64,000 nt of DNA from Patescibacteria group bacterium (GTDB lineage Bacteria > Patescibacteriota > Patescibacteriia > Magasanikbacterales > GWA2-37-8), in assembly GCA_022710645.1 (NCBI GenBank), contig JAKLGL010000001.1, positions 167,426 to 231,425 on the forward strand. The letters run 5' to 3'. Under the pieces are notes generated by a model. The model had not been told where the DNA came from, did no database searches, and saw nothing but the letters and a program-made list of their open reading frames with translations. Shown here one piece after another: positions 10,962 through 11,189 of the stretch. Each line of letters begins with the position of its first letter. The first letter of the stretch is position 1. A program made the translations under genes and the position numbers.

Positions 10962-11189
10962 AAACGAAAAAACAGTCCTGAATAGGACTGTTTTTGCGGG
11001 TCGGACGGGAAAACTAAGGACTCGGCCGCGACTAAAATTTTCTTCCGAAAATTTTGTCTGGCCACCGCCTCACGGTCGCGCTCGCTCGTCTGCGTCGCGC
11101 GACATCGTTCCGGCGTTCTCGTCCCGACGCGACACAAACAGTTGTGTCACTTCCGCCCACGAAAAAACAGTCCTATGCAGGACTGTTTT
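10962..11189 (-). repeat. tRNA-Asp 3'-flank element: hairpin, ~16-nt direct repeat of the tRNA-Asp 3' end, ~155-nt GC-rich structured core, hairpin
   Basis: gaaaaaacagtcct..aggactgtttttgcgggtcggacggga occurs at 10966-11005 and again at 11161-11200, the second copy overlapping the tRNA 3' end; the core is homologous to the element at 29903-30045. Confidence 0.8.

Follow-up and report, generated by a model that had tools for sequence, protein, structure and literature searches.

A small element without an open reading frame (ORF) occurs twice, each time 3' of a tRNA gene, in a 64,000-nucleotide stretch of a Patescibacteria group bacterium (contig JAKLGL010000001.1, positions 167,426 to 231,425; hereafter the window), which contains six tRNA genes and one tmRNA gene as called by ARAGORN and Rfam. 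Copy A lies behind tRNA-Asp at 11006-11130 on the minus strand, and copy B behind tRNA-Gln on the plus strand, where a covariance model matched 29938-30061 with 113 bits. The element is real and conserved and, as far as we found, apparently undescribed: we came across no description of such an element in the literature. Only tRNA and tmRNA exceeded the gathering thresholds of Rfam 15 across the window, and at E<=10 the non-tRNA matches within 10850-11300 all remained below threshold (the best at 28.6 bits vs 52). [quoted passage not shown]

On the minus strand, tRNA-Asp is directly followed by the hairpin aaaaacagtcctgcataggactgttttt (11190-11163) and then by a GC-rich segment, after which the tRNA's own 3' end is repeated. 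The 16-mer tcccgtccgacccgca is found at 11205-11190 and once more at 11010-10995, ahead of a second hairpin. This order had been described in the original prediction and every part of it was found in place, the second hairpin differing in its loop. The hairpin beside the tRNA is indeed present and repeated, but in copy A it is a terminator that belongs to the tRNA and was copied along with the 3' end. The two terminators have the loops TGCATA (11172-11177) and TATTCA (10978-10983), which are reverse complements bar one base, meaning that either a small loop became inverted or one of the hairpins was copied from the other in inverted form. In copy B no terminator separates tRNA and element, and the tRNA-Gln 3' end, tccaagcctcggaac, is repeated after its core.

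Copies A and B have a 104-nt core in common, in the same orientation relative to their own tRNA, with 55 consecutive identical bases. A 29-mer of this core occurs exactly twice in the window vs zero times expected (100 shuffles), which confirms the predicted recurrence behind tRNA-Gln. The inner hairpins of the two copies differ by paired changes (gtcgcgc/gcgcgac vs gttttgc/gcaaaac), so that the sequence changes and the pairing is kept, again as predicted. Compared with shuffled sequence, copies A and B fold with z = -4.7 and -6.5, respectively. Their cores are, as had been noted, richer in GC than the host DNA (59% for copy A and 48% for copy B vs 37% for the whole window).

Anatomy of the element across many tRNAs

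We scanned metagenomes with a core 20-mer that lies inside H3, one of the hairpins of the element, and also made one 20-mer genome scan. The metagenomes yielded 31 loci, 27 of them real. The genome scan yielded three matches, of which one was real (L001, behind tRNA-Ala; loci are designated by L numbers) and the other two were chance matches in GC-rich genomes. With the window included, this amounts to about 28 distinct copies at at least 14 different tRNAs: Asp, Gln, Ala (GGC, TGC), Pro (CGG, GGG), Thr, Leu, Val, Ser (three anticodons), Glu, Asn, Arg and a Tyr-like 3' half. An ARAGORN-called tRNA lies 69-124 nt ahead of 17 copies. The copies without a called tRNA are in some cases cut by contig ends, and others follow a tRNA 3' half with an interrupted 5' part (L121, L135), a pseudo-tRNA (L149) or another element (L124). 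Every copy for which upstream sequence was at hand lies behind a tRNA or a tRNA 3' half, the location that had been predicted, and the orientation relative to the tRNA is constant among copies.

The interrupted tRNA 5' parts upstream of the elements are at 3380-3470 in L121 and at about 1130-1250 in L135, and ARAGORN was unable to read through them; a group I intron, considered as the interruption, scored below the Rfam gathering score. The contig of L001 (CAYRYH010000008.1) is titled 'uncultured Gammaproteobacteria bacterium'. It is AT-rich, syntenic with L138 and carries a Magasanikbacteria-type element, and may be mis-binned or mislabelled.

The anatomy was established by alignment of 22 distinct copies and by inspection (Table 1). 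The element is about 150-230 bp long and its parts follow one order: the tRNA, whose stretch from position 57 to the end we call X1; an optional terminator; in some copies an arm X'a; a hairpin H1; an inverted arm X'b; the core; and finally X2, which repeats the tRNA 3' end directly. The core string consists of a constant GCCGGA, the H2 domain, GAGGCGG-T and the hairpin H3 (GGCCAGAC AAAATTTTC-loop-GAAAATTTT AGTCGnGGCC), whose 3' strand resembles the variable loop and T-stem 5' region of a tRNA, and X2 follows. H1 differs from copy to copy, with the apex CAAACTGCTTTG or CAATAGTTTG on a stem of free sequence. The distance between the arms is 72, 74, 84, 90 or 91 nt among copies, and because of these different spacings a conserved reading frame is excluded; the absence of a conserved peptide frame had been predicted as well.

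Insertion is at one defined position of the T-loop, between C56 and R57; the tRNA upstream of it is intact, and the native 3' end downstream of it is decaying. X2 always starts at R57, right after the constant GGCC, and continues through the discriminator and one or two further bases. Most copies have a repeat of 15-19 nt; it measures 46-50 nt in copy A and about 70 nt in L121, and in these two it also includes the terminator. The original prediction had interpreted the duplicated flank as a target-site duplication at tRNA 3' termini. The repeat itself is real, but it does not single out the 3' terminus as the target: it starts at T-loop position 57 and ends at a variable point 15 to about 70 nt further on, and the inverted arm had been overlooked. 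From this fixed start and variable end we infer an attP/attB identity block or a displaced native 3' end rather than the staggered cut of a transposase.

X'b has a length of about 13-16 nt, with GAAC at its end, and its sequence is reverse-complementary to the segment of the local tRNA made up of G53, the T-loop and the T-stem 3' strand. In copy A this corresponds to tRNA-Asp positions 53-65 bar positions 57-58, opposite which a subfamily that includes copies A and B has GA in place of TC. Across 23 copies, X'b agreed with its own tRNA at 6.87 out of nine variable positions vs 4.89 after permutation (p<=5e-5). The T-loops TTCAAGT, TTCAAAT and TTCAATT are accompanied by the arms ACTTGAA, ATTTGAA and AATTGAA; because these read as reverse complements of the T-loops, X'b is an inverted and not a direct copy. 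These reverse-complemented, non-palindromic T-loops also rule out a left arm that repeats the T-stem 5' strand and T-loop directly, that is, insertion into the T-loop of a duplicated T-arm. Where the T-stem contains a G-T pair, X'b is the reverse complement of its 3' strand and not of its 5' strand (L156 CAGGG, L126 GAGG).

The arm complementary to the T-loop and T-stem goes with the working tRNA. Where X1 and X2 disagree, X'b sides with X1 and it is X2 that is degenerate (L126, L127, L131, L140, L141 and position 59 of copy B); X2 has decayed in L131, L140 and L128 and carries a 7-nt insertion in copy A. X'a, seen in some copies and striking in L149, L121 and L141, is a degenerate complement of the acceptor 3' strand. 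In L121, L124, L128 and copy A, X1 and X' form a palindrome centered on the terminator loop.

Table 1. Coordinates of the tRNA genes, the parts of copies A and B, the second-family element and the GIY-YIG genes (window positions, except for the last row, which gives positions in related loci)
Feature	Positions	Strand	Remarks
tRNA-Asp(GTC), host and target gene of copy A	11191..11265	-	ARAGORN, Rfam
X1 of copy A	11208-11191	-	Last 18 nt of tRNA-Asp, position 57 to end
Terminator hairpin 1	11160..11190	-	aaaaacagtcc-tgcata-ggactgtttttt; duplicated along with the tRNA end
H1 hairpin of copy A	11129..11150	-	gtgacacaa ctgt ttgtgtcgc; present in minimum-free-energy fold
X'b inverted arm of copy A	11115..11128	-	gtcgggacgagaac
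H2 domain of copy A	11066..11115	-	Outer stem CGCC/GGCG invariant; inner hairpin variable but paired
H3 hairpin of copy A	11024..11063	-	GGCCAGAC AAAATTTTC-GGAA-GAAAATTTT AGTCGCGGCC; sequence invariant among copies
X2 of copy A	10996..11023	-	gagtcc + 7-nt insertion ttagttt + tcccgtccgacccgc
Terminator hairpin 2	10965..10995	-	Loop tattca; twin of hairpin 1 at 10995-10968, scored terminator-like
tRNA-Gln(CTG), host and target gene of copy B	29832..29903	+	ARAGORN, Rfam
X1 of copy B	29886-29903	+	
H1 hairpin of copy B	29918..29939	+	gcgacacaa taat ttgtgtcgc
X'b of copy B	29940..29953	+	gtttggacgagaac; complementary to tRNA-Gln T-loop and T-stem 3' strand CCAA
Constant core of copy B	29953..30043	+	H2 domain 29953-30001, H3 30004-30043
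X2 of copy B	30044..30061	+	gattccaagcctcggaac; direct copy of tRNA-Gln position 57 to end
Family 2 element behind tRNA-Trp (52195-52266)	52012..52144	-	Core ~100 nt, three hairpins
GIY-YIG genes	L127 8853-9116; L146 429-710; L149 3080-3379, 6736-6948; L001 3687-3944; L135 10925-11203		

A conserved single-strand fold

RNAalifold recovered the stem between the arms, H2 and H3. With a user-specified structure, 91% of the cells were paired and 10 pairs were changed on both sides; the covariation score was reached by none of 500 shuffles, and slid controls were 35-51% paired. The three basal pairs of H2 all covary (GC 9, AU 8, CG 4), while its inner hairpin, 5-12 bp long, is built from unrelated sequences, and all 25 variants fold on their own. 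In the stem formed by X'b and the tRNA 3' segment, six of nine pairs are changed on both sides, and the pairing with X2 decays. In a diverged L121 copy (3544-3668), inspected by eye, the outer stem of H2 is apparently kept as CCGC/GCGG instead of CGCC/GGCG and the outer stem of H3 as CCTGC/GTAGG instead of GGCC/GGCC. H3 is invariant in sequence among copies, with only its 5' half forced by the search seed, and this invariance suggests sequence-specific recognition. A K-turn was considered for the GGA/GA internal loop and rejected on inspection, the consensus bases being absent.

The conservation of pairing proves that the element matters in a single-stranded form, be it RNA or DNA. This supports the original description of a conserved, structured, non-coding and tRNA-linked element with covariation. 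The predicted function at the RNA level is only partly shown: a single strand does matter, and in 22 of 25 copies the tRNA-sense strand folds more stably than the other (by a mean of 3.1 kcal/mol), but RNA and DNA are not told apart by this, and a terminator splits copy A from its tRNA.

A rival explanation of the element is a structured non-coding RNA derived from the tRNA 3' trailer. X'b would then be antisense to the adjacent T-loop and T-stem, and X'b and X2 would form a tRNA-like minihelix for processing enzymes; the RNA would serve the host, or act in cis, in tRNA maturation or control and would spread by duplication or recombination between tRNA loci. The hairpins covary, as expected of such an RNA, and the better fold of the tRNA-sense strand points to G-U pairs there, yet the element matches no Rfam family. 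X'a, H1, X'b, the core and X2 can even be drawn as an acceptor stem, an arm and an expanded T-arm, but the decay of X2 in many copies (L131, L140, L128 and, by insertion, copy A) implies that a minihelix is not maintained. Copy B, with no terminator between tRNA and element, and the constant orientation relative to the tRNA would both suit a trailer, whereas an intrinsic terminator separates the two in copy A and several others. The layout is also frequent, being present at three of the six window tRNAs, but close relatives do without the element at the same tRNA, and the terminal copy of the local tRNA 3' end is left unexplained. We therefore regard a trailer RNA as unlikely; if it were one, it would represent a new and widespread class of tRNA-linked RNA.

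Turnover at orthologous tRNA sites

We compared the tRNA-Gln locus with that of relatives, in which the C39 peptidase is 76-81% identical. The site is empty in L150 and L151, which have a different tRNA-Gln allele with its own terminator, and in L155, which has the allele of the window. Likewise, L159 (PPDK 85% identical) has the same tRNA-Asp and the element is absent. Empty sites in sister genomes, envisaged in the original prediction, thus exist for both tRNAs.

Other relatives carry a second family of elements at this locus. Family 2 is also present in the window, behind tRNA-Trp, as a terminator, an X'b (gtaggaatcgaat), three hairpins, a 17-nt direct copy (attcctgcactccctgc) and a second terminator; its core is unrelated to that of copies A and B (family 1) and its layout is the same. 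L152, L153 and L157 have the window-type tRNA-Gln followed by a family-2 core in this layout, with the X'b CTTGGATTCGAAC. L156 has the L150-type tRNA-Gln followed by the same family-2 core, and its X'b, CAGGGATTCGAAC, matches its own tRNA. L154 has a core-less version, in which X'b is followed after only 11 nt by an X2-like stretch. Two tRNA-Gln(CTG) alleles are found, with compensating differences in acceptor stem and T-stem: one in L150, L151 and L156, the other in the window, L152, L154, L155 and L157. Relics of one allele adjoin working copies of the other, and the X2 relic of L152 and its flank have orthologous counterparts in the empty L150, where the tRNA-Gln 3' end and terminator are intact.

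Targets differ between relatives too. L123 and L135, syntenic with 53-59 kb of the window, have family 1 at tRNA-Thr(GGT) and a Tyr-like tRNA, and the Thr(GGT) and Tyr genes of the window are without it. The same H2 sequence types recur across tRNAs and across genomes, from which it follows that target change is recent relative to the drift of H2. Tandem accretion is seen in L124, L139 and L121, and of the three copies in L124, divergence is greatest in the relic that lies at the largest distance from the tRNA. Judged by these genome comparisons, what is gained and lost is a discrete unit with frequent change of target.

Kinship, proposed mechanism and neighboring genes

We class the element with tRNA-targeted integrative elements and folded recombination sites. 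Mycobacteriophage Ms6 integrates at the T-loop of a tRNA-Ala, in a report that describes no such element (PMC1762012). The element shares with T-loop integrative elements such as Ms6 the T-loop insertion point, the intact tRNA, tandem accretion and a repeat that begins in the T-loop and reaches the tRNA 3' end or, in some cases, passes it; it differs from them by its length of 150-230 bp, by having neither integrase gene nor cargo, by the presence of one core at at least 14 tRNAs and by its inverted, target-matched arm and covarying hairpins. A T-loop sublocation class of tyrosine integrases was reportedly defined by Williams in 2002; the direct repeats with an intact tRNA at one junction agree with it, and an internal integrase gene is lacking.

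This likeness raises the possibility that the copies are scars, that is, attL-attR remnants of T-loop-integrated islands or prophages that lost their interior. The repeat from T-loop to 3' end is what T-loop integrases produce (phage Ms6, PMC1762012), and tandem accretion and the tRNA fragments piled up at the tRNA-Gln locus would be in keeping with it. However, random deletion would not yield one 104-nt core with identical ends at at least 14 tRNAs in many genomes, no copy adjoins an integrase, neither core is found in IMG/VR or in the phage and plasmid collections, and covariation means selection on the fold itself. Such scars are hence a poor explanation that we consider quite improbable.

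Cis-mobilisable integrative elements (CIMEs) are reduced to attL and attR and have no recombination module. They resemble the element in their att-like direct repeats at a tRNA gene, in being non-autonomous and in accretion, but are kilobases long, specific to one site and without a conserved folded core. The folded single-stranded recombination sites, integron attC and CTXphi attP(+), are also related in architecture, the latter consisting of two inverted dif-like sites about 90 nt apart. In the element, inverted target-like copies 72-91 nt apart could likewise pair and would then mimic the duplex target, a mismatch lies near the junction (positions 54-55, or 57-58 in some subfamilies), and the structure between the arms varies in sequence and length with pairing kept. 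In contrast to these sites, its target is the tRNA T-loop rather than attI or dif, its arms change with the target, and the whole element is little more than the site; any part played by IntI or Xer would be hypothetical.

The element is small, ORF-less, hairpin-rich, multicopy and above its host in GC, as are MITEs, repetitive extragenic palindromes with their associated tyrosine transposases (REP/RAYT) and the palindrome-associated transposable elements (PATEs) derived from IS200/IS605, but it has neither constant terminal inverted repeats nor a duplication of fixed length, and it occupies one defined position of a gene family. Its arms differ and follow the local tRNA, its repeat is 15-19, 46-50 or about 70 nt long rather than short and fixed, and, as regards IS200/IS605, whose derivatives sit 3' of a tetra- or pentanucleotide and cause no duplication, a long direct repeat is present and the window, where the search was made, contains no Y1 transposase. 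As in the bridge (seek) RNAs of IS110/IS1111 and the exon- and intron-binding sites (EBS-IBS) of group II introns, a short segment in a folded scaffold covaries with the target; the element differs in having no adjacent recombinase or intron (no ORF adjoins it, whereas the IS110 bridge RNA comes from the noncoding end of a DEDD recombinase-bearing element), no Rfam match, and one arm of 13-16 nt where the others have split guide loops. A paper on group I introns of Patescibacteria tRNAs describes no such element and mentions neither the T-loop nor duplications (PMC13011429). These introns lie inside the tRNA body, in the anticodon loop, and belong to RF00028, whereas the element lies downstream of an intact tRNA and has no RF00028 match.

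Taken together, we favor, with middling confidence, a miniature, non-autonomous, T-loop-integrating element that has a target-matched arm and acts as a folded single strand. This strand would be DNA, and a site-specific recombinase would do the work. Upon insertion, the element would bring or regenerate the tRNA 3' part X1, and because of this the tRNA gene would stay intact; the native 3' end would be pushed downstream as X2 and would decay because it is no longer under selection. In the free single strand, X'b would pair with the element-borne tRNA 3' segment to give a stem that copies the duplex tRNA-gene site, with a two-base mismatch at positions 54-55 and with H2 and H3 as a cap; the continuous strand of this stem (AGTCGCGGCC-GAAT-T-stem 3') would resemble a tRNA from the variable loop onward. 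By analogy with attC and CTXphi attP, a recombinase provided in trans would act on this folded attachment site. Fold-back synthesis may offer a lead on how the arm is rewritten, given the X1/X' palindrome on the terminator loop and the reverse-complementary loops of copy A, but H1 interrupts the arm.

Several points weigh against this interpretation. A classical T-loop crossover into a non-cognate tRNA would produce a dead chimeric tRNA, and frequent target change requires rewriting of both X1 and X'b, for which no mechanism is demonstrated. H1 sits upstream of X'b, and the match of X'a to the acceptor strand is not significant overall (p ~0.2), which led us to reject an inverted copy that reliably spans the acceptor strand. 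L150 and L152 differ over the entire tRNA-Gln allele and not in the 3' part alone, a difference that calls for a further step, for example allelic replacement. The stronger fold of the tRNA-sense strand fits an RNA as well as a DNA strand, and a seed 20-mer within H3 makes for biased sampling of copies. No free or circular form was seen, and no copy lies in phages, plasmids or IMG/VR contigs: a blastn search of phage and plasmid collections gave no match to the element, and the core patterns of both families gave chance matches or none in IMG/VR. Finally, no recombinase was identified and none is common to the loci. Pfam searches of the 64-kb window revealed no recombinase, integrase, transposase or reverse transcriptase, and the all-against-all blastp of ORFs from 28 loci, run for a shared neighbor protein, returned two clusters, one being a spurious ORF across the element and the other small GIY-YIG proteins.

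A variant of the favored interpretation takes X'b as a true guide: folded RNA or single-stranded DNA would pair with the tRNA T-loop and T-stem and direct a trans-acting enzyme to insert the element at that point, with the arm and the 3' copy rewritten from the new target at each jump. We find it doubtful; if true, it would make the element a mobile unit of about 100 nt, protein-less and programmable, and smaller than any other known site-specific integrative element. tRNA genes are classic landing sites of phages and genomic islands, and the occupants known so far span kilobases and carry an integrase of their own, whereas here a unit barely larger than an attachment site lies behind many tRNAs in the streamlined genomes of the candidate phyla radiation (CPR). 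If mobile, the element would define the minimal cis requirements for T-loop integration and point to a recombinase that takes a folded or guide-bearing substrate, possibly a retargetable insertion tool. It would also account for the pseudo-tRNAs and tRNA fragments by which the annotation of Patescibacteria genomes is confused.

Small genes encoding only a GIY-YIG domain (PF01541, 71-100 aa) adjoin tRNAs or elements in five related loci. One is 14 nt past X2 in L127, one just upstream of the occupied tRNA-Asn in L149, and one between a working tRNA-Gln and a full-length pseudo-tRNA-Gln in L146. The elements could accordingly be by-products of double-strand-break repair at tRNA genes cut by free-standing GIY-YIG endonucleases, where fold-back synthesis at the terminator hairpin makes the arm and the duplication, and the core is co-converted from a donor allele, like homing without an intron. 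Beyond these gene neighborhoods (L127, L146 and L149 among them), the exchange of whole-tRNA alleles between relatives and the X1/X' palindrome, which L121, L124, L128 and copy A have around the terminator loop, would agree with such an origin, but H1 breaks up the supposed fold-back copy. GIY-YIG genes are absent from the window and from L150-L160, and the proximity to tRNAs is a matter of observed instances. No DNA-targeting domain is known in GIY-YIG-only proteins of 80-100 aa, and overall a break-repair origin appears very unlikely to us.

Duplications of tRNA 3' ends extend beyond the two families, and one of some kind is present at four of the six window tRNAs. Behind tRNA-Thr(GGT) (52614-52687, minus strand), 52500-52613 comprises an unrelated insert of about 72 nt and then a 39-nt tRNA duplicate, taaggaggtggtcagcggttcaaatccgctcaacggctc, which starts at the anticodon loop, continues to the 3' end and resembles an anticodon-loop-class duplication. 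Downstream of 41 non-redundant tRNAs, a direct repeat of at least 12 nt was found in 16 cases and an inverted match of at least 9 nt in 13, in a sample of loci that is enriched by the way it was collected. Extra tRNA copies or fragments with GC-rich hairpins in the D-loop, anticodon loop and T-loop occur in L146 (690-830), L149 (7100-7200) and L154 (8850-9080), the inserted hairpins being TCCGCC..GGCGGA, GGGTCCCC..GGGG and CCCGCCC..GGGCGGG. A TCCGCC-N4-6-GGCGGA hairpin, similar to the REP type, is also the H1 of L001 and L138 and the 3' hairpin of family 2.

Around copies A and B, the neighbors are housekeeping genes (SmpB, tmRNA, IF3, L20, PPDK, DnaX). Going by how the homologues of neighboring proteins are named, the host belongs to Candidatus Magasanikbacteria (Patescibacteria). 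A 198-aa ORF upstream of tRNA-Asp had too few homologues to be of use. Also upstream of tRNA-Asp is a perfect sigma-70 consensus promoter, TTGACA-17 nt-TATAAT, at 11316-11288 on the minus strand.

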